Assembly (NCBI GenBank): GCA_963665125.2
Contig: CAXXUK010000002.1
Location: 496,245 to 520,244, forward strand
Length of the DNA: 24,000 nucleotides
Origin: an uncultured Desulfarculus sp.
GTDB taxonomy: Bacteria > Desulfobacterota > Desulfarculia > Desulfarculales > Desulfarculaceae
Direction of reading: 5' to 3'
The translations under genes were made by a program, and so were the position numbers. The first letter of the stretch is position 1, and each line of letters starts with the position of its first letter. The notes below the pieces were generated by a model, which was given only the letters and a program-made list of their open reading frames with translations, ran no database searches and had not been told where the DNA came from. Of this stretch, positions 185 to 8,948 are shown piece by piece.

Positions 185-281
185 TCAACACAAATAGCTG
201 GTCCGAGACGGCGCAATTTGGGTGCGCCGTCCATGGCGCGCGCGAAACGATGCCTTTGGCGCGCTTGGGAGCGGTAGGGTT

Positions 282-1697
282 ATGAAAATCAACAATATTG
301 TCAAGTCGCTGTTATTGGTGTGGTGTCTGGGGCTGGTGCTGGGGCCTTGGGCGGCCCTGGCGGCAGAAGAAGCGGCCGACGACGACCTCAGCGGCCTGCT
401 GGAGCAGGAAACCTCCGACACTCCGGGCCTGACCATGGCCAAGGAGGAAAAGCTGTGGGGAATCCAGTACGAGGGCGAGCTGCGGGCCAACCTTTGGTAC
501 AAGTACGACGATGACCCGGAGTGGAAGACCACCAACCGCCTGGATCTGCTGGCCGAAAAAGAGGCCAACAACCTCAAAGTGCTGGGCCGGGTGAAGTTCG
601 ACTACCAGAACCTGGAGGCCGATCCGGACTTTCGCGCCGACGTGCGCGAGATGTACGCCCGCTACCGGGTGAAATCATCCTGGTTCGAATACCTGGACAT
701 GATCGCCGGCAAGAAGATCGTCTACTGGGGCAAGGGCGACGAGGTGCGCCCCCTGGACATCGTCTGCCCCGAGGACATGACCTCCAACATCTATTACCTG
801 AAGAACGAGCGCAAGACCGGCGTGCTAGGCCTGTTCGCCGACCTGGCCCTGAACCAGCACGTGACCCTGGAAGTCTTCTGGTCGCCGTATTTCCAAAAGT
901 CATGGACCCCGGATCTCGGTGATTATTTCGAGCCCTATGCCCTGCGTAAACTGCACGACGCGGGAGTGGCCGAGGGTTCGGCCATGGTTCCGGATAATTT
1001 CTCGGACATGGCCTCGGTGGGCGGCCGCCTGAAGCTTTCGGTGGCCCGCTTTGACATCGGGCTGTACGCCTACCAGGGCTACAGCAACCTGCCCACCTAT
1101 GAGATAACCTCGCTGATGCGCCACCCGGTCTACGGCATACCCATCCCCACCGAAGTGTCACCGGAATACTACCGCCTGACCATGTACGGCGCGGACTTCG
1201 AGCGGGCCGTGGGCGATTTCGTGCTGCGCGGCGAGGTGGCCTACATGGCGAACGGCGATCACGAAATGGTGGACTGGCAACACGACTACACTTTGCTGGT
1301 CCAATACCCCAACGGCATCGCCGACAGCCGCAGCCTGCAATACGTGGTGGGCCTGGACAAAAACAATCTGTTCATCCGCAATCTGTTCATGAACATCCAG
1401 TATGTTGGCCAGTACATCACCGACTATGACGACGTGTTCGCCGACGACCAGGTGACCCACGGCGCCACGCTGTATTTTCAGTATTCGATCATGGACTCGC
1501 TGTTCGTGTTCTACTACCGCGGCGTGGCCGACTTTACGCACCACACCTACCGCAACAGGTTTGACGGCGCGTACAAGATCAACAACTGGTCCGAGGTCTC
1601 CCTGGGCGTGATCATCTACAACGGTGACGCCGATACGCTGTTCGGCCAGTATGACAACCAGGACTTTGTCTATACGCAGCTCAAGGTGATCTTCTAG
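282..1697 (+). CDS. Secreted outer-membrane beta-barrel protein of unknown function (porin-like), 471 aa
   Basis: ORF 222-1697. I prefer ATG 282 because it gives a classical signal peptide (MKINNIVKSLLLVWCLGLVLGPWAALA/AEE). The mature part is rich in alternating aromatic/polar strands (Y/W/F/D/N/G) and ends ...YTQLKVIF with a C-terminal Phe, as in OM beta-barrels. Family assignment (e.g. DUF1302-like) could not be verified by eye. Confidence 0.7.
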   Translation: MKINNIVKSLLLVWCLGLVLGPWAALAAEEAADDDLSGLLEQETSDTPGLTMAKEEKLWGIQYEGELRANLWYKYDDDPEWKTTNRLDLLAEKEANNLKVLGRVKFDYQNLEADPDFRADVREMYARYRVKSSWFEYLDMIAGKKIVYWGKGDEVRPLDIVCPEDMTSNIYYLKNERKTGVLGLFADLALNQHVTLEVFWSPYFQKSWTPDLGDYFEPYALRKLHDAGVAEGSAMVPDNFSDMASVGGRLKLSVARFDIGLYAYQGYSNLPTYEITSLMRHPVYGIPIPTEVSPEYYRLTMYGADFERAVGDFVLRGEVAYMANGDHEMVDWQHDYTLLVQYPNGIADSRSLQYVVGLDKNNLFIRNLFMNIQYVGQYITDYDDVFADDQVTHGATLYFQYSIMDSLFVFYYRGVADFTHHTYRNRFDGAYKINNWSEVSLGVIIYNGDADTLFGQYDNQDFVYTQLKVIF

Positions 1698-1882: not shown

Positions 1883-2449
1883 ATGCCCAAACAAAGCGCT
1901 TGGCGGCAAGTGGCGCGGCCTGTATCCCTGGTCTTTTTGATCACGGCCGCATCGTATTTCGGCTATTTCGGTTCGCGGCAGGTAACCAACCCTTCCCTGC
2001 ACCAGATCATGGCCGCTTTTTTCGGCACCACCTATTTCATTTCCATTGCCCTGGGCTCCGTCTATGTCTTTGCCTCCAGCCGCCTGAAGGGCGCTGCTCT
2101 GGGCCTGGCCGTGGCGGCGTGTTTCGTCACCCCGCTGGCCTGGATGACCAAGGAGGTTTGGCGCATATCCGAGTCCCATCCCCTGGCCGAATGCCTGTAC
2201 TACTATCTCAACCCCCTGAATATCTGGCTGGTGTCGTTCATGTTCGTGGAGATGGGCCTGGCCTCCCTGATCATCCGGCCTCTTCTGCGCCGCCGGGGTC
2301 TGGGCCCGGACGGCGGCCCCGGGGCGGCCATGGCCGTGGTGGTCGTCAGCCTGGCCGTTGCCGTCTCGCTGTATGCCTGGGGTAAGGGGGAAAACATCTA
2401 CGTGCTGTTTCTGGGGGGCTACCGCGCACTCTTCGGATCGGGGGTGTAA
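1883..2449 (+). CDS. Hypothetical integral membrane protein (188 aa, about 5 hydrophobic segments)
   Basis: ATG 1883 has GGGAG 6 nt upstream. The sequence is strongly hydrophobic (e.g. VSLVFLITAASYFGYF, FFGTTYFISIALGSVYVFA, AAMAVVVVSLAVAVSLYAW). The stop lies 2 nt before the sulfatase ATG, suggesting co-transcription and coupling. Confidence 0.65.
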   Translation: MPKQSAWRQVARPVSLVFLITAASYFGYFGSRQVTNPSLHQIMAAFFGTTYFISIALGSVYVFASSRLKGAALGLAVAACFVTPLAWMTKEVWRISESHPLAECLYYYLNPLNIWLVSFMFVEMGLASLIIRPLLRRRGLGPDGGPGAAMAVVVVSLAVAVSLYAWGKGENIYVLFLGGYRALFGSGV

Positions 2450-2451
2450 CC

Positions 2452-3861
2452 ATGGCCAGCCGCGACAAGACCAATCGCCGCCAGGCCCTGCGTCTGATCG
2501 GTTCGGCGGCCGCCGCCGGGTATGTCGGCTTGAACTGGCCCGGTGCGTTGCGTCCGGCCCACGCCGCGCCCACCCAGAGGCCCAACATCATCTTTATCCT
2601 GGGCGACAACCACAATGCCGATGCCATGGGCTGCGCCGGCCATCCGTTTATTGATACGCCGGGCATGGACCGCCTGTCCAAGGAGGGCGTGCGCTTTGAA
2701 AACACCTTCAACACCACCAGCCTGTGCAGCCCCAGCAGGGCCAGCATCCTCACCGGGGCCTATGCCCACAACCACGGCGTGAAAAACAACCACACACCAT
2801 GGACCGGCCAGATGCCCACCTTTTTGGAGAATTTGAGCAAGGCGGGCTACGCCACGGCGTTTATCGGCAAATGGCACATGCCCGGCCACGGCCTGCCCAA
2901 GATGCCGTATCTGGACCTGTTCGTCTCCTACACCCACCGCGAGGGACAGGGTTCGTACTTTGACTGCCCGATGATCAAAAACGGCAGGCAGGTAGCCTCC
3001 CGGGCGCCGTACATCACCACCGAGGTCACCGACTACGCCATTGAGTTCATACAAAAGAACCAGGCCCAGCCAGGTGAGCAGCGCAAGCCGTTTTGCATCT
3101 ATCTGTCCCACCGCCCCGGCCATCCTCCGTTCCAGGCACCAGAGGACATAAAGGGAAGATACGACCATGCCGACGTCAAGGAAGTCCTGCCCGATAACGT
3201 GGATCCGTATTGGTACGGCAAGACCAAGGGCAATGTGTTCCAGGGCGTGATGATGGGCTCGTATTACGACCAATACCGCAAGTACTGCGAGACGCTCACG
3301 GCCATGGACCGCGACATCGTGCGCCTTTTGGATAAACTCGACGAAATGGGCTTGGCCGAAAACACCATGGTCATCTACATGGGCGACAACGGCATGCAGT
3401 GGGGCACCCACGATTGCCACGGCATACGCGAGCCTTATGAGGAATCGGCCAGGCTGCCATTGATCATCCGGGCCCCCTGGCTGATCAAGGACCCCGGCGC
3501 GGTAAGGGGGCAAATGGCCCTGAATATCGACATAGCCCCGACGTTTTTGGAGTTGGCCGGGGCGGCCATGCCGGGCCATGTGGACGGTCAAAGCCTGGTG
3601 CCGCTGCTCGCCGACGCCAAGGCCAAGGGGCGTGATGATTTCTTGATGGAGTTTTGGCGCTATTTCCCGGAGAACACGCCCAGCTACAAGGGCGTGCGCA
3701 CCAACCGCTACAAGTACGTCGAATTTGAGCGGGGGCGGGGGCCGTGGTTGTTTGATCTGCAAAACGACCCCAAGGAGATGAATAATCTCTACGGAACGCC
3801 CGAGGGGGACAAGGTTTTGCCGGGGTTGAGGAAGAGGTTGGGGGAGTATTTGGAGGGGTAG
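2452..3861 (+). CDS. Tat-exported Cys-type sulfatase (arylsulfatase / N-acetylglucosamine-6-sulfatase family), 469 aa
   Basis: There is a twin-arginine signal (TNRRQALRLIGSAAAAG...AHA). The N-terminal metal-site block is PNIIFILGDNHN. The formylglycine signature is SLCSPSRASILTG (C-x-P-x-R). Later sulfatase blocks are GKWH and YMGDNG. Confidence 0.9.
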   Translation: MASRDKTNRRQALRLIGSAAAAGYVGLNWPGALRPAHAAPTQRPNIIFILGDNHNADAMGCAGHPFIDTPGMDRLSKEGVRFENTFNTTSLCSPSRASILTGAYAHNHGVKNNHTPWTGQMPTFLENLSKAGYATAFIGKWHMPGHGLPKMPYLDLFVSYTHREGQGSYFDCPMIKNGRQVASRAPYITTEVTDYAIEFIQKNQAQPGEQRKPFCIYLSHRPGHPPFQAPEDIKGRYDHADVKEVLPDNVDPYWYGKTKGNVFQGVMMGSYYDQYRKYCETLTAMDRDIVRLLDKLDEMGLAENTMVIYMGDNGMQWGTHDCHGIREPYEESARLPLIIRAPWLIKDPGAVRGQMALNIDIAPTFLELAGAAMPGHVDGQSLVPLLADAKAKGRDDFLMEFWRYFPENTPSYKGVRTNRYKYVEFERGRGPWLFDLQNDPKEMNNLYGTPEGDKVLPGLRKRLGEYLEG

Positions 3862-4098
3862 GAACTTTAATCATCTACTAAAACGTGGTGATTTTGTTTG
3901 ACCGATATTGTTAGCTGGTTGTAGTATCAGTTAATGCCTATGGGGGTATGACGGCATGAGCCACGTTTCGCTCGGTCACGTGCGGGTTTATAAAAACCAC
4001 ATCTTTGAAAATAAATCCCCAATAACGACGTTTAAGAGTCAAGCTAAGCAAAGAAAATATACAGGTTTTCAGTGTGCATATATGTGCGAGGATGTTCA

Positions 4099-4986
4099 AT
4101 GAGTAAGGGAACGTACTACGTAGGTCGAATTAATAAGGGTGGACGTTTAGATAATAAAAATTTACTAAAAGCTATCATAAACTCAACAGAAATAACGCAT
4201 GGTTTATTCAAGTGGTCTATAACAAATATTGAAGAAGGGGAAGTTGATGAAGGGCCATATGTTTTTGGTTTTTTGTCTAAATATTATCTAGAGGGCCCCA
4301 TTAAAATAGTTAATGAAGAAGAAAAAAACCAAGAAGAGTATTCAGCTACTAATTTACTACGAGCAAGTAGCCCGTTTGTTTATCTTCCCGACTATGCAGG
4401 GATTGCGTATCTGCACGTTTGGGACGGGATACTTAATGAGACGTTTAGAAGTAGGTTTCAGCAAATAATCAAAGAAACCTTTGGAAATTTTTTTGTTGAT
4501 TTTACTATTGAGCCAATTATCGATTATAGAACATTTGTGCAGAAGATTATCGGACTAGATTCCATCCAATCAATAAATGCAACAGTTAGACCACCAAATC
4601 CATCATTTGGTCGACTTTGGAAGAATTTAAACGATTATATTATGGAGAGAAACGCACGCGAAGTGAATATTAGTGAAAAGGGAAGAGGCATAGAAGGAAT
4701 CAAATCAAAAATAGCTGATCTGTTATTGCGCATCATTGCAAATAAACTTTATGAACCAGACATTCCCCCGGATATTGCCGATGCTGCATTGTTGATGGCA
4801 GCTGATGGTTACGGTCATGGAACAATCAAGGGATATGATGGAAATTCAATTAGAACAATCAGGACGAGAGAAAACCAAGAAAGCTTTCCGTTTGATAAAG
4901 ACCCTGTGCCAAGTGAATTGGCATCTCGGTCCGCTTATGTATTTGAAAAAATATCAAAAAAGAGCGGAATGAGGCATGAAGACTAA
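4099..4986 (+). CDS. Orphan soluble protein of the low-GC island (295 aa), function unknown; candidate sensor/partner of a two-gene Rex-like module
   Basis: ORF 4072-4986. I prefer ATG 4099 because it has GAGGA (4088-4092) 6 nt upstream. Codons are A/T-rich and unlike the host. The protein is hydrophilic and K/E/N/I-rich, with no hydrophobic segments and no catalytic motif I can recognise. Its last 11 nt overlap the next ORF. Confidence 0.75.
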   Translation: MSKGTYYVGRINKGGRLDNKNLLKAIINSTEITHGLFKWSITNIEEGEVDEGPYVFGFLSKYYLEGPIKIVNEEEKNQEEYSATNLLRASSPFVYLPDYAGIAYLHVWDGILNETFRSRFQQIIKETFGNFFVDFTIEPIIDYRTFVQKIIGLDSIQSINATVRPPNPSFGRLWKNLNDYIMERNAREVNISEKGRGIEGIKSKIADLLLRIIANKLYEPDIPPDIADAALLMAADGYGHGTIKGYDGNSIRTIRTRENQESFPFDKDPVPSELASRSAYVFEKISKKSGMRHED

Positions 4987-5470
4987 TAAAATATTTTACT
5001 GGATTGGTATTTTGTTTCCGCTTCCTGAGGTATTAGTATTATTAATGTTTCCTCTCATATTCTTTGTATTTAATCAAGAAATAACTATTTTTATGAGGGA
5101 TATCGTTTCAATCAAAATATCATCTGATATCTTAAGCAAAATAGCATATGTTCCTCTAGCGATTATCCCCGTATCTGCCTATTTCGTGATTGGTATCTTA
5201 TCACCAGATCACGAGGATAAAAAAATCCTGCATAATTGGCAAGATCTTTGGGCTCTAAGGAGAACCTGCATGTCAGGCCTCGTATACCAAGCACTGTTCG
5301 CGGCCATTTCTCTGATTTCACTAGCTGCGTGCAGCTCTCAGAATGTCGAAAGCATGGAACTTGCTATTATAATTGCAGCGGTAGGGACGGCCTACTCCTC
5401 TTTGACATTTTTAAACGCTAAGGTCAGAGTACAAGAGTTTCTGTCTAGAGATAAAACCGAGAAACTCTGA
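4976..5470 (+). CDS. Small four-TM membrane protein of the low-GC island (164 aa); candidate membrane effector
   Basis: ATG 4976 lies inside the end of the preceding ORF (stop 4984-4986). There are four hydrophobic stretches: IFYWIGILFPLPEVLVLLMFPLIFFVF, IAYVPLAIIPVSAYFVIGIL, SGLVYQALFAAISLISLAA and MELAIIIAAVGTAYSSLTFL. Composition is as low-GC as its partner's. Confidence 0.7.
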   Translation: MKTNKIFYWIGILFPLPEVLVLLMFPLIFFVFNQEITIFMRDIVSIKISSDILSKIAYVPLAIIPVSAYFVIGILSPDHEDKKILHNWQDLWALRRTCMSGLVYQALFAAISLISLAACSSQNVESMELAIIIAAVGTAYSSLTFLNAKVRVQEFLSRDKTEKL

Positions 5471-5913
5471 GCGCGCGAATATTGTTTTGGAAGAGGCCCC
5501 TCTGGCCGCCGGCTCGCAAAAATATATCTGGCCCTGCTGGAATGTGACCGGCCCCGCGAGCGGAAATGCCTGTTAAGTTATATCTTCCCTGCCCAGTTGT
5601 GGACCGCACTGCTTTTGGCCGCTGCTCCTTGGCTGGGTTTCGATAACGGCGTGAGGGCGGTGCCCGGAGCGGGTGTCATGGCCGATCGCGCCGGGCGGTG
5701 TGCCTATTTACCGGCGTTGCTGTCCCACCCAACCGGCCCCAAACCTTCCACAGAATACGCCCCACACGCCGAGTAATAGCGTAATCCTGCCTGAGGCGGG
5801 CGATTCCATCCGCCAACACGCACGGAATACCTACAAACTCCAGCATATCCCAGGGAACCTCAGACCCAACTTGAGGCAACGTCATTTGGAGGGGGGAGAG
5901 GGGGACTGCTAGG

Positions 5914-6094
5914 CTGGCCAGGACGGCCAGACCGGATTGCCGCAAGGCAATCCGCGAGCCCCGGATCGGACTTGCTCCGTCCGGGACGCTGCACCTCGGG
6001 CCAGGGACGGGCCGAGGTGCAAAAAATCGTAGAGCCGGGGACCACCTTTGTCGAAAGGGGGTCCCCACTTCCCCCAGGGGAAAACGCCTTTTCC
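5914..6094. other. Cluster of six consecutive GC-rich stem-loops in an ORF-less gap (possible structured RNA or REP-like element)
   Basis: The six stem-loops are: CTGGCC/GGCCAG (5914-5930); CGGATTGCC-GCAA-GGCAATCCG (5933-5954, GNRA-type loop); CGGAC/GTCCG (5967-5983); GCACCTCGG/CCGAGGTGC (5991-6020); GGGGACC-A-CCTTT-GTCG-AAAGG-G-GGTCCCC (6037-6066); and GGAAAA-CGCC-TTTTCC (6079-6094). Strand and function are unknown. Confidence 0.35.
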
Positions 6095-6192
6095 GGGAGA
6101 CTTGACCCATCGCGGAGTTGGAAAAATGAAGTGCCCCTGCCCCGTGGCTTATTCATAGTCGAACACTAGACAATACCGGTGCCAGTGCATAC

Positions 6193-6208: not shown

Positions 6209-7484
6209 ACGGCGTCAGCTCCGAGAGTGCACTTTAATTGGTTGCAATAATTGGTTAAAATGTCCTTAACCATCGTGAATGGAGGGCATCTTTGGCCAAT
6301 CGGTTCGAGACAAGGCGGGGCGGTTTCGCGGACATGGCCGTGGCCAGCCGCAAACAGCCCAAAACCTTTCTGGATGATGTAAACCGCATCGTCGATTGGA
6401 AGCCCATCGAGGGCTTTCTGAAGAAAAAGCTTCGGCGCCACAAGGACGCGGTGGGCAATCCGGCTTATCCGCCTCTGGGCATGTTCAAGATTTTGCTGCT
6501 GCAACGCTGGCATGACCTGAGCGACCACAAGGCAGCCGAGGCCATGGCCGACCGAATTTCCTTTTGCCGTTTCGCCGGTTTTTCGTTGGATCACGAGTCG
6601 CCCGACGCCTCCACCATCTGCCGCTTTCGAAACCACCTGCAAGAGCGCGGCCTGCTGGACAAGCTGTTTAATATGATAAATCAGCAGCTTGAAGCGCAGG
6701 GTATTTTGGTGCGCACCGGCTCCAGCGTGGATGCCACCTTGATTCCATCCGCCCGCCAGCCCCGCAAAAAGCAGGAAGTGATCCTCGATGAACTCGACGA
6801 CCAAAACGACGATGATGACGACGACCGCCCCACCGGCTACAGCGTGGAAACCACCTATTCCGATGACACGGACGCCAAATGGACCAAGAAAGGCAAGAAG
6901 TACTGCTATGGCTACAAGGGACACATTGCCGTCGATGGGGAGCACGGGTTTATTCTGGCTGGCCACGCCACACCGGCCAACCGACCGGATTGCAAGGAAT
7001 TCATGGCCGTGGTCGACAACGCCAAGCTGAAGAAGGATGCTCCGGTCCTGGCCGACAAAGGCTACAGCAGCGCGGATAATCGAAGCCACCTGGAAGAGGC
7101 CGGTTACTTTGACTTGATCATGTACAAGGCGGCTCGCGGTCGACCGCTGAGTGATGCAGAACTCAGAGTGAACAAGGCAATCTCACGGGTGCGCTGCTCG
7201 GTGGAGAGGGCATTCGGCAGCATGAAGAAGCACTACGGCCTGGCGCGGGCCAGATATTTGGGCCTGGCCAAGATGAACATGCAACTGATGCTATCGGCCA
7301 TGGCCTTCAACCTGAAAAAGGCCGCGATACTGGCCGGCAGGTGATCAAAGACACCGGGGGGCAGGATGGGCAGCCAGGTAAAAGCTAGAAAAAACCCAAC
7401 GAAGCCCGGCCCAACTGCCTACTACACCGAAAAAATCATCTGAAAAGGAAAGTATGTCAGGACTCGGCTTTACGCAATGGTCTC
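6198..7484 (+). mobile_element. Intact IS5-family insertion sequence (about 1287 bp) with terminal inverted repeats and a 5-bp target-site duplication
   Basis: It carries a single DDE transposase ORF. The ends are GAGACCGTTGC (6198-6208) and GCAATGGTCTC (7474-7484), a 10/11 inverted repeat. It is flanked by direct AGTTA (6193-6197 and 7485-7489). Exact ends are uncertain by a few nt. Confidence 0.8.
6292..7344 (+). CDS. IS5-family DDE transposase (InsH-like N-terminal domain + DDE_Tnp_1), 350 aa
   Basis: TTG 6292 has GGAGGG 5 nt upstream. The N-terminal block (GGFADMAV...YPPLGMFKILLLQRWHDLSDHKAAEAMADRISFCRFAGFSL...STICRFRNHL) parallels E. coli IS5 InsH. The catalytic blocks are VDATLIPSA, VLADKGYSS and RVRCSVERAFGSMKKHYGLARARYLGL. 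There is an unusual poly-Asp insert (DELDDQNDDDDDDR). Confidence 0.9.
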   Translation: MANRFETRRGGFADMAVASRKQPKTFLDDVNRIVDWKPIEGFLKKKLRRHKDAVGNPAYPPLGMFKILLLQRWHDLSDHKAAEAMADRISFCRFAGFSLDHESPDASTICRFRNHLQERGLLDKLFNMINQQLEAQGILVRTGSSVDATLIPSARQPRKKQEVILDELDDQNDDDDDDRPTGYSVETTYSDDTDAKWTKKGKKYCYGYKGHIAVDGEHGFILAGHATPANRPDCKEFMAVVDNAKLKKDAPVLADKGYSSADNRSHLEEAGYFDLIMYKAARGRPLSDAELRVNKAISRVRCSVERAFGSMKKHYGLARARYLGLAKMNMQLMLSAMAFNLKKAAILAGR

Positions 7485-7617: not shown

Positions 7618-8673
7618 GTGGTTGAAGACAAATTCAAGCAAAGTTTCGTTGTCGGCCGGGTGGAGACGCCCGCCGGGGATGTCCCCCGGGTGGCCACTGC
7701 TTGGACCGCCAAAGACCGTATAGGCGGTTTGGGCGTGCGGGTGGGCATCCGGCGGATGAACTACGCGGTTACGCCGGGGCTGTATTGCGTTGGTCAGCCG
7801 GACAAAGGCTCGCCCGTGCTGGTCTCGGCCAACTACAAGCTCAGCTTTGATCACCTGCGCCGGGAACTGGGCGGCATCAGCGCCTGGATTCTGGTGCTGG
7901 ATACCAACGGCATCAATGTTTGGTGCGCCGCCGGAAAGCGTACCTTCGGCACCGACACCCTGGTGGCGGCCATCAGGGCCGGCAACCTGGACCGGGTCGT
8001 GGAGCACCGCGCGTTGATAGTGCCCCAGCTCGGTGCGCCGGGCGTGGCGGCCCATCTGGTCAAGCGGGCCACGGGTTTTACGGTCAAGTACGGCCCCATC
8101 CGGGCGGCGGACCTGCCCTGGTATCTGTCCAACGGCCAAAAGGCCACGATTGATATGCGCCGCAAGGACTTTGGCCTGGCCGAGCGCCTTGTCCTGGCGC
8201 CCATGGAGTTTGTCCCGGCCATGAAGCTGATGCTGCCCGTGGGCCTGTTGCTGGCGTTGCTTCTGGCGGCCGTTGCGCCCGGCGGGTTCTGGGCCGCCCT
8301 GTCCGCAACGGCCTGGCGTCCGATCCTTATTTTGCTGCTGGGTGTCACGGCGGCGACGGTGCTGGGCCCGGCCCTATTGACCTGGCTGCCGGGGCGGATG
8401 TTCGCGTCCAAGGGCGCTGCTCTGGGCCTGTTGGCGTCCGTTGTCTGCGCCGCGCTCCTATTGCCGGACGCTTCGTGGGCCTTTATGGCGGGCGGCATAT
8501 TGATGTCCACCGCCGCGGCTTCGTTTGCCCTGATGAATTTCACCGGCGCGTCGACATATACCTCGCTGTCAGGGGTGAAGCGGGAGATGCGTATATGCGT
8601 GCCCATGCAGGCCGTCGCCGCCCTTGCCGGAGTCGCTTTGCTCGTAACGGCCTTGCTGGTGGCCGGGAGATGA
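7618..8673 (+). CDS. hgcA: HgcA, corrinoid protein of the mercury-methylation system (N-terminal cobalamin-binding domain + C-terminal multi-TM domain), 351 aa from GTG
   Basis: The diagnostic cap-helix motif GINVWCAAGKRTFGT is present (NVWCAAGK = 7915-7938, Cys codon 7924-7926). The preceding block is PVLVSANYKLSFDHLRRELGGISAWILVLDT. The C-terminal half is very hydrophobic (about 5 TM). hgcB follows directly. The start is uncertain: GTG 7618 has no SD (see finding on the upstream in-frame ORF). Confidence 0.9.
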   Translation: MVEDKFKQSFVVGRVETPAGDVPRVATAWTAKDRIGGLGVRVGIRRMNYAVTPGLYCVGQPDKGSPVLVSANYKLSFDHLRRELGGISAWILVLDTNGINVWCAAGKRTFGTDTLVAAIRAGNLDRVVEHRALIVPQLGAPGVAAHLVKRATGFTVKYGPIRAADLPWYLSNGQKATIDMRRKDFGLAERLVLAPMEFVPAMKLMLPVGLLLALLLAAVAPGGFWAALSATAWRPILILLLGVTAATVLGPALLTWLPGRMFASKGAALGLLASVVCAALLLPDASWAFMAGGILMSTAAASFALMNFTGASTYTSLSGVKREMRICVPMQAVAALAGVALLVTALLVAGR

Positions 8674-8678
8674 GATCC

Positions 8679-8948
8679 ATGAAAATGACATATCTGAAGG
8701 CTGTTACCACCCTTGAGCTTTTCCCGGTAAAGTGCGTGGGCTGCGGCATGTGCCTGGAGGTCTGCCCCCACGAGGTATTCATCCTGGATGACGGCAAGGC
8801 GGCGATATACGAAAAGGACGCCTGCATGGAATGCGGGGCCTGCGCCATGAACTGCCCGGCCGGGGCCATTGACGTTGACGCCGGGGTGGGCTGCGCTGCG
8901 GCCATCATCGCCACGGCCCTGCGCGGCGACAAGGCCGTCTGCTGCTGA
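8679..8948 (+). CDS. hgcB: HgcB, 2x[4Fe-4S] ferredoxin partner of HgcA (89 aa)
   Basis: The start reads MKMTYLKAVTTLELFPVK.... There are two CX2CX2CX3CP clusters (CVGCGMCLEVCP, CMECGACAMNCP), a conserved internal GVGCAA, and a C-terminal vicinal Cys pair (...KAVCC*). GGGAGA lies 8 nt upstream of ATG 8679. Alternative in-frame ATGs at 8670 and 8685 are possible. Confidence 0.88.
   Translation: MKMTYLKAVTTLELFPVKCVGCGMCLEVCPHEVFILDDGKAAIYEKDACMECGACAMNCPAGAIDVDAGVGCAAAIIATALRGDKAVCC

Follow-up and report, generated by a model that had tools for sequence, protein, structure and literature searches.

A horizontally transferred gene pair with a predicted RexA-like fold: a probable Rex-like exclusion module in an AT-rich island of Desulfarculus

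Rex ranks among the oldest phage-exclusion systems known, and how it works is still unsettled. We analyzed a 24,000-nucleotide (nt) stretch of contig CAXXUK010000002.1 from an uncultured Desulfarculus sp. (the window, with coordinates counted from its first letter) that carries an AT-rich island with two genes, which we call A and B, coding for a soluble protein of 295 amino acids (aa) and a 164-aa protein with four transmembrane (TM) segments, respectively. We think it fairly likely that this island is a horizontally transferred two-gene Rex-like exclusion (abortive-infection) module that belongs to a widespread and already catalogued bacterial family. The case is a computational one that consists of the gene pair, its conservation, co-divergence and purifying selection, its foreign composition, the neighborhoods of its homologues and the RexA-like predicted fold of A.

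Among the described systems, a DUF4747 match has been reported for lambda RexA, Sbash gp30, CarolAnn gp44 and Butters gp30, which in the case of the actinophage proteins is a weak HHpred match, and each of the Sbash, CarolAnn, Butters and lambda pairs contains a four-TM protein and excludes heterotypic phages experimentally (PMC6426596, PMC6426606, PMC7542560). The lambda pair excludes T4 rII phage, and RexB is a small inner-membrane protein with four TM helices whose central cytoplasmic loop matters for function. Non-specific DNA binding is described for RexA and for actinophage homologues, and the bias that RexA exerts on the lytic switch does not depend on RexB. The RexA structure has a globular domain split between residues 1-139 and 248-279 and a four-strand, four-helix dimerization domain at residues 143-234, with hinge and swivel loops between the two domains and a closed conformation in the crystal, and RdgC is its reported structural relative (PMC11077077). 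In addition, a 2026 paper lists 17 'DUF4747/CarolAnn' operons among immune operons located downstream of capK/capS, with the listed examples all coming from Acinetobacter (PMC13373217). The A-B pair is of this already known Rex-like/DUF4747 kind. Both the DUF4747-Rex link and the defense role of related pairs are published, and the A-B pair is a new member of this kind. The resemblance to Rex that the initial annotation of the island, made from its letters, had pointed out thus coincides with a family link already in the literature. The same annotation had called the module a candidate undescribed one, a label that has to be dropped as A joins DUF4747, a family with published links to RexA, Sbash gp30, CarolAnn gp44 and immune operons (PMC6426596, PMC6426606, PMC7542560, PMC13373217).

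Gene A starts at the ATG at 4099 and not at the GTG at 4072 where the mechanically called open reading frame (ORF) opens. We chose this start because the resulting N-terminus MSKGTYYVGR aligns with MRRGRYYLGR of the homologues and because GAGGA is located 6 nt before the ATG. A first search returned at least 120 full-length homologues at 35-52% identity, many of them from metagenomes and others from Herbaspirillum, Pseudomonas, Paraburkholderia and Verrucomicrobia. With a profile built from 32 homologues, 541 of 1.84 billion cluster representatives were matched at E <= 1e-3, of which 161 reached E <= 1e-30, so the earlier description of A as an orphan was wrong. The alignment contains the invariant motifs PPNPxFG and A..M..DGYG, the latter inside a near-invariant DAALLMAADGYG. 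No catalytic Pfam domain was found in A and no recognizable catalytic signature is evident in the family alignment, in agreement with what had been read from the single sequence. Regarding its family membership, the window A scores 13 bits against PF15931.10, which is below the DUF4747 (PF15931) gathering threshold of 27 bits, and hmmscan with the same model returned no match for the homologues P0043, P0005 and P0119. The precomputed annotation lists PF15931.11 for P0001 and for most A homologues, and the PF15931 model or its threshold evidently changed between Pfam versions. The A profile also reaches P0295 and P0293, two proteins above the DUF4747 threshold (44.9 and 31.5 bits, respectively), at E ~1e-31 and over nearly their full length. 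This reach, together with the PF15931.11 records, therefore places A by sequence comparison as a divergent branch of the DUF4747 superfamily.

The predicted structure of A points to RexA. The AlphaFold2 (AF2) model of A has a predicted local distance difference test score (pLDDT) of 91.4 and a predicted template modeling score (pTM) of 0.87, and when it was compared by Foldseek with 350,542 PDB chains the best match was lambda RexA (8twq_B, E 1.3e-6, probability 1.00). At E <= 0.01 the only matches were RexA 8twq and two RdgC entries (2OWL/2OWY) at ranks 2 and 3. The initial annotation had proposed such a model-and-Foldseek check for A, and its outcome is a top PDB match to the very protein that the annotation had named. 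Along the chain, the A model consists of a beta-rich region at residues 1-127, an inserted beta/alpha domain of ~4 strands and 4 helices at 133-247 and, at the C-terminus, further strands that lead into a long helix at 271-288. The split beta-sheet domain, the inserted four-strand, four-helix domain and the long C-terminal helix of the two-domain RexA/RdgC fold are therefore all present in the model. Global template modeling scores (TM-scores) were low at ~0.30, and a global superposition would be lowered by the hinge and swivel loops of RexA and by its closed conformation (PMC11077077). Based on the model, the fold of A is predicted to be RexA/RdgC-like. Among predicted viral structures (BFVD), A additionally matched five uncharacterized proteins from metagenomic phages that are 277-322 aa long, with E-values between 2e-13 and 2e-7 and TM-scores of up to 0.62.

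The presence of RdgC at ranks 2 and 3 raises the alternative that the pair is involved in a DNA transaction and not in immunity, with A being an RdgC-like DNA-binding modulator of recombination, replication or a switch and B tethering or regulating it. The non-specific DNA binding by RexA and its actinophage homologues, as well as the RexB-independent effect of RexA on the lytic switch, would fit such a role. To our knowledge, however, RdgC is a stand-alone housekeeping gene that has no membrane partner, whereas A is obligately paired with B, is horizontally mobile and is patchily distributed. Its TM partner also co-diverges with it, no repressor or Cro-type switch lies beside the pair, and no third gene is conserved around it among the homologous loci. 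When the foreign composition, the defense and mobile neighborhoods and the absence of the clade from phages that are described below are also taken into account, we regard a DNA transaction role as quite improbable.

The pairing of A with a small membrane protein is itself a conserved trait. We examined 80 genomes from many phyla that encode an A homologue, and in 68 of them the gene is directly followed by an ORF of 151-174 aa (median 157.5) in which two or more segments are strongly hydrophobic. Three or four such segments are present in 60 of these 68 partner ORFs, and the 12 loci without a partner are mostly truncated at a contig end or disrupted in frame. This answers the question of co-occurrence that had been posed for the pair, as A homologues do travel with a downstream multi-TM partner. 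In 56 of the 68 loci the B gene begins before A has ended, and 47 of these overlaps measure 1 or 4 nt. In the window the overlap is 11 nt, exactly as read at first sight, and the two closest long-contig homologues also have an 11-nt overlap. As judged from the sequence, this overlap implies that A and B would be translationally coupled and made in a fixed ratio. Furthermore, A and B have diverged together: their pairwise distances correlate with a Mantel r = 0.81 that was reached by 0 of 2000 permutations. A is more conserved than B. Purifying selection acts on both genes, with a ratio of nonsynonymous to synonymous substitution rates (dN/dS) that in most homologue pairs lies at 0.04-0.09 in the case of A and at 0.08-0.25 in that of B.

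These data also bear on a trivial explanation, namely that the island is decaying or meaningless AT-rich DNA carried in by the nearby transposase and that its ORFs are pseudogenes or due to chance. A transposase gene does lie 0.8 kb downstream, and gene callers omitted B in some loci. However, both ORFs are intact and under purifying selection with homologues that share invariant motifs across many phyla, and the omitted B ORFs do exist with GTG or TTG starts. Specifically, the two loci in which B was omitted (L089 10882-11358 and L091 10879-11349) each have an intact ORF of 156-158 aa that begins with GTG or TTG and overlaps the A stop by 4 nt, and public genome annotations probably miss B-type partners more generally. 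We give decaying DNA virtually no credence, and the chance-ORF reading is ruled out by the conservation, the invariant motifs and the dN/dS values.

Regarding the membrane partner, a Kyte-Doolittle scan of B located hydrophobic segments at residues 5-34, 52-77, 98-121 and 128-147, which bears out the four helices that had been assigned by eye, and the AF2 model of B is all-helical with a pLDDT of 82.7. A glutamate located inside TM1, E18, is invariant across 58 sequences. The most conserved region is the central loop (residues 76-97), with the consensus K-x-L-x-x-W-P-x-Y-W-x-L-K that in the window B is represented by KKILHNWQDLWALR. From the basic N-terminus, the Lys/Arg-containing central loop and the basic C-terminal tail we infer an N-in topology in which the central loop would be cytoplasmic. 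Thus, B has four hydrophobic segments, an all-helical model and a loop that is its most conserved part, with a topology that is predicted and with no significant fold match to RexB. A k-mer search with B returned only B itself and its homologues came through synteny. With phmmer, the window B matches partner proteins of other genomes down to E 2.4e-16, and it scores 121 bits against the family profile, a profile in which it was itself included. The Rex-like reading of the initial annotation is therefore upheld in part: it stands as regards the predicted fold of A, the gene order and the four-TM partner, and it does not stand as regards a homology of B to RexB, which is not detectable.

One metagenomic phage, Siphoviridae sp. 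ctylc9, appeared in the BFVD results for both proteins. Its A0A8S5S8L2 ranked second among the A-like fold matches (E 1.9e-12), and its A0A8S5S8H0 ranked third among the B-like ones, at a level that is not significant (probability 0.87, TM-score 0.48). This model-based result hints that phages may carry structurally related pairs despite lacking this sequence clade.

The composition of the island is foreign to its surroundings. In 300-nt windows, the G+C content falls from 0.55-0.69 over the sulfatase gene (2100-3900) to 0.32-0.41 (3900-5250) and returns to 0.56-0.64 (5400-6150), and by direct count it is 0.372 in the two-gene module versus 0.602 in the flanks. A fall of 23 points sustained over 1.6 kb cannot be put down to chance. 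Both counts, which amount to a fall from ~0.60 to 0.37 across 3862-5470, agree with the G+C collapse that the initial annotation had noticed there, and the two ORFs that it saw filling the island are confirmed at their coordinates (Table 1). The same is seen elsewhere, with the module being AT-richer than its flanks in all loci measured (a median of -9.6 points in 66 usable homologous loci compared with -23 in this window). In addition, A-B modules in which A is 88-95% identical occur across genera, specifically in Alcanivorax, Alloalcanivorax, Idiomarina, Pseudidiomarina and Marinobacter (loci L004/L008, L002/L005/L006 and L011), in Neptunomonas and Marinomonas (L015/L018) and in Halomonas and Marinobacter (L075/L077). 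Synonymous sites are saturated in most of these cross-genus module comparisons, in which B diverges ~3x faster than A. The horizontal acquisition that had been proposed for the island is thus supported by both its composition and the cross-genus modules. The AT-rich region upstream of A is, from its sequence, probably the module's own promoter region. At the island edges we found no tRNA, Rfam match, flanking direct repeats or terminator-like site, and an empty-site probe with a 24-nt junction sequence had zero matches in metagenome contigs. Searches for proteins identical to A, B or the sulfatase likewise had no match.

The homologous loci are often located near restriction-modification (R-M), abortive-infection (Abi), toxin-antitoxin (TA) or mobile genes. 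Among the two nearest genes on each side of the pair, the most recurrent families are Methylase_S, HsdM/N6_Mtase, ResIII, AAA_15/AAA_21, DUF4917, HEPN_Swt1, DUF499, RVT_1, AbiEii, DarT and PLDc_2, with helix-turn-helix regulators, transposases and unrelated housekeeping genes recurring as well. PADLOC run on 132 immediate neighbors identified 7 type IIG enzymes, 6 type I methyltransferases and 5 mad2. Individual loci illustrate this diversity. In one, Mrr and a reverse transcriptase precede A-B, which is followed by a type III R-M system and then by three MNT/HepT pairs; in a second, A-B and a reverse transcriptase reside inside a type I R-M operon; a third is a region resembling an integrative and conjugative element with TraG, a relaxase and EcoRII; and a fourth is an Mrr/integrase islet in Pseudomonas. 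Other loci are solo A-B insertions between metabolic genes, as is the case in this window. The expectation of a defense or mobile neighborhood is borne out, qualitatively, for many of the homologous loci, and in this window the pair's own neighbors are metabolic genes and one transposase.

Two independent contexts have a reverse transcriptase of 527-537 aa (RVT_1) that directly precedes the A homologue in the same orientation (L087 8316-9899, L088 2139-3722 and L092 8345-9958, where L087 and L088 share a gene arrangement). RVT_1 accounts for 2 of the 127 upstream neighbors and could be either a separate defense reverse transcriptase or a recurrent partner.

The neighborhoods and the coupling could also be accounted for by a selfish addiction, or TA-like, cassette in which B would act as a small membrane toxin that the cytosolic A neutralizes, and which would stabilize mobile DNA and not sense phages. 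The tight coupling with its fixed A:B ratio would be in keeping with such a cassette, as would the strong horizontal-transfer signature at variable locations and the frequent TA and mobile neighbors. In lambda, the RexA:RexB ratio is likewise of importance. However, at 295 aa and with a conserved two-domain RexA/RdgC-type fold, A is far above the typical size of an antitoxin, and its being more conserved than B is unusual for an antitoxin. Furthermore, the experimentally studied DUF4747-linked pairs act against phages. We therefore consider an addiction cassette rather unlikely, with the note that TA and Abi functions are not mutually exclusive.

When the A-B pair is compared directly with lambda RexA/RexB (PF15969/PF15968; PDB 8TWQ), both consist of a soluble protein of ~280-295 aa followed by a four-TM protein of ~144-164 aa, with the same domain order in the soluble protein and RexA as its top fold match. 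There are several important differences. For example, rexA and rexB are 15 nt apart whereas A and B overlap, and Rex is prophage-encoded beside cI whereas A-B is chromosomal, has no repressor and belongs to a clade that is absent from phage collections. Neither A nor B has sequence or profile similarity to its Rex counterpart, and B has an invariant intramembrane Glu. The actinophage pairs Sbash gp30/gp31, CarolAnn gp44/gp43 and Butters gp30/gp31 are also two-gene units of a cytosolic DUF4747-linked protein and a four-TM protein, and CarolAnn 44 and 43 overlap by 26 nt. They differ from A-B in that their soluble proteins are ~370 aa as compared with 295 aa for A, in being prophage-borne in Actinobacteria, and in showing no similarity by hhalign. 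CarolAnn gp44 itself had no Pfam DUF4747 match in hmmscan. The bacterial DUF4747/CarolAnn operons resemble A-B in being non-phage and often located beside R-M genes and are treated as immune pathways, and it is to DUF4747 proteins that the A profile extends. No capK/capS-like pair was recognized among the conserved neighbors of A-B.

There are a number of observations that weigh against a Rex-like exclusion module. The first is that no sequence-level similarity of A or B to RexA, RexB, CarolAnn gp44 or gp43 was detected, with hhalign probabilities of <1% using an A alignment of up to 220 sequences and an alignment of 4 RexA/RexB sequences taken from phage records. The alignments of A against CarolAnn gp44 and of B against gp43 gave probabilities of <=0.2%, and hmmsearch gave negative scores for A. 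The RexA family PF15969 does not match the window A and matches 1 of 32 homologues (E 0.008), and the RexB family PF15968 matches 0 of 58 B-family members, for which hhalign against RexB was also <1%. Residues 154-178 of A were twice aligned with RexA 149-173, which is not significant, and the A profile searched against PDB sequences gave only a spurious exopeptidase match (E 0.74). Second, the search of the B fold against the viral structures of BFVD gave nothing significant and did not retrieve RexB. Third, neither A nor B is recognized by PADLOC, PHROGs or NCBIfam models. The profile check against PADLOC that had been suggested was run and yielded nothing, with neither protein having any hidden Markov model match at E <= 10 in PADLOC-DB v2.0.0. 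Fourth, the clade was found neither in 50,697 phage genomes nor in IMG/VR (2.9 million viral contigs), and no cI-like neighbor or conserved nearby repressor was found, unlike every experimentally studied Rex-like system. Fifth, the neighbors of the pair in this window are metabolic genes and one transposase with no defense genes, and the defense association of the homologues is qualitative as it consists of family counts without a formal background. Finally, what lambda Rex does physiologically is a matter of debate, and RexA also modulates the lysis-lysogeny switch (PMC11077077).

Plasmid carriage of the pair is nearly absent, with one distant copy found. The absence from phage collections together with the scarcity on plasmids therefore indicates that the pair is related to the prophage Rex systems but resides in bacterial islands. 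The distant copy is located on a plasmid of the cyanobacterium Picosynechococcus sp. PCC 8807 (NZ_CP016488.1; L096 3908-5307). Its A homologue has 29% identity (E 3e-13), and the gene next to it codes for 177 aa in which four hydrophobic stretches were read. This pair belongs to a dnd cluster, where it lies between dndD/dndE, an HNH endonuclease, a HigB toxin and a phosphorothioation-associated methyltransferase.

As a Rex-like exclusion module, the pair could operate as follows. A would be a cytosolic sensor with a RexA/RdgC fold, probably a DNA-binding dimer, that responds to an infection-associated nucleoprotein or protein signal, and B would be a four-TM inner-membrane protein made in a fixed ratio with A through translational coupling. 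Triggered A would act on the conserved central loop of B, which presumably faces the cytoplasm. B would then dissipate the membrane potential, perhaps via its invariant membrane-embedded Glu, and the loss of potential would stop macromolecular synthesis and thereby abort phage growth. In this scheme the DNA binding, the contact between A and B, the ion conduction, the trigger and the anti-phage phenotype are all assumed from the example of lambda Rex and of the Sbash, CarolAnn and Butters pairs. For Butters, most of the antagonism is reported to come from the soluble protein, with the membrane protein acting as a modulator, so control within the A-B pair may run in either direction.

The remaining features of the window are listed in Table 1 with those of the island. 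Besides the sulfatase, the neighbors of the pair are a transposase gene and hgcAB-like genes.

Table 1. Features of the island and its surroundings, in window coordinates
Feature	Position	Strand	Basis or remark
DUF1302 outer-membrane-type protein	222-1697		upstream of the 1883-2449 ORF
Sulfatase gene (Sulfatase + SGSH_C)	2452-3861	+	Pfam domains
AT-rich intergenic region, 5' of A	3862..4098	+	composition, sequence, consensus scan
Candidate sigma-70-like site TTGACC-18 nt-TAGTAT	3898-3927	+	pattern match only
Shine-Dalgarno GAGGA	4088-4092	+	6 nt before ATG of A
Gene A, 295-aa soluble protein, putative divergent DUF4747 branch	4099..4986	+	ORF, homologues, AF2, Foldseek
Overlap of B start (ATG 4976) with A end (TAA 4984-4986)	4976..4986	+	sequence
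Gene B, 164-aa four-TM protein	4976..5470	+	ORF, hydrophobicity, family alignment, AF2
Transposase ORF, intact, 350 aa, DDE_Tnp_1 + DUF772	6292-7344		0.82 kb downstream of B

The initial annotation had placed an intact insertion sequence 0.7 kb downstream of the island. The transposase ORF is indeed intact, 0.82 kb away, and an intact insertion sequence is not supported since neither terminal inverted repeats nor target duplications were found around it. The 0.8-kb GC-rich stretch that leads from the B stop to the transposase is without a convincing ORF and has a hairpin with 13-nt arms at 5990-6021. On the other side, the island abuts a possible small sulfatase operon, as a 188-aa multi-TM ORF (1883-2449) ends 2 nt before the sulfatase start.

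Approximately 2.1 kb downstream of the island, at 7618-8948 on the + strand, there is a probable hgcAB mercury-methylation pair. The first ORF (7618-8673, 351 aa) combines a corrinoid domain of the CdhD/CFeSP type with a multi-TM region at its C-terminus, and it contains GINVWCAAGK, which we take to be the HgcA cap-helix motif N(V/I)WCA(A/G)GK. The 89 codons that follow (8679-8948, within ORF 8475-8948) resemble HgcB in having two CxxCxxCxxxCP motifs, a CMECGAC sequence and a CC at the C-terminus.

At this locus, a protein with a predicted RexA fold and its four-TM partner form a mobile bacterial module that is spread over many phyla and that is missed by PADLOC, and an annotation of 'hypothetical, hypothetical' can be replaced by that of a probable defense module. 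It also provides targets for the sensor-gates-channel model outside of lambda, specifically E18 in TM1 and the W88 motif of the central loop in B, and the PPNPxFG and DGYG motifs in A. A bolder possibility, which we advance tentatively and hold to be doubtful, is that the pair represents a large, ancient, chromosomal branch of Rex-type immunity, with its 541 cluster representatives in more than 10 phyla and its absence from known phage genomes, in which an RdgC-fold DNA sensor would gate a four-TM B whose Glu conducts protons. If this were true, then Rex would be a bacterial defense family that was later borrowed by temperate phages, and the clade would offer diverse, mutation-ready homologues for working out Rex-type exclusion.

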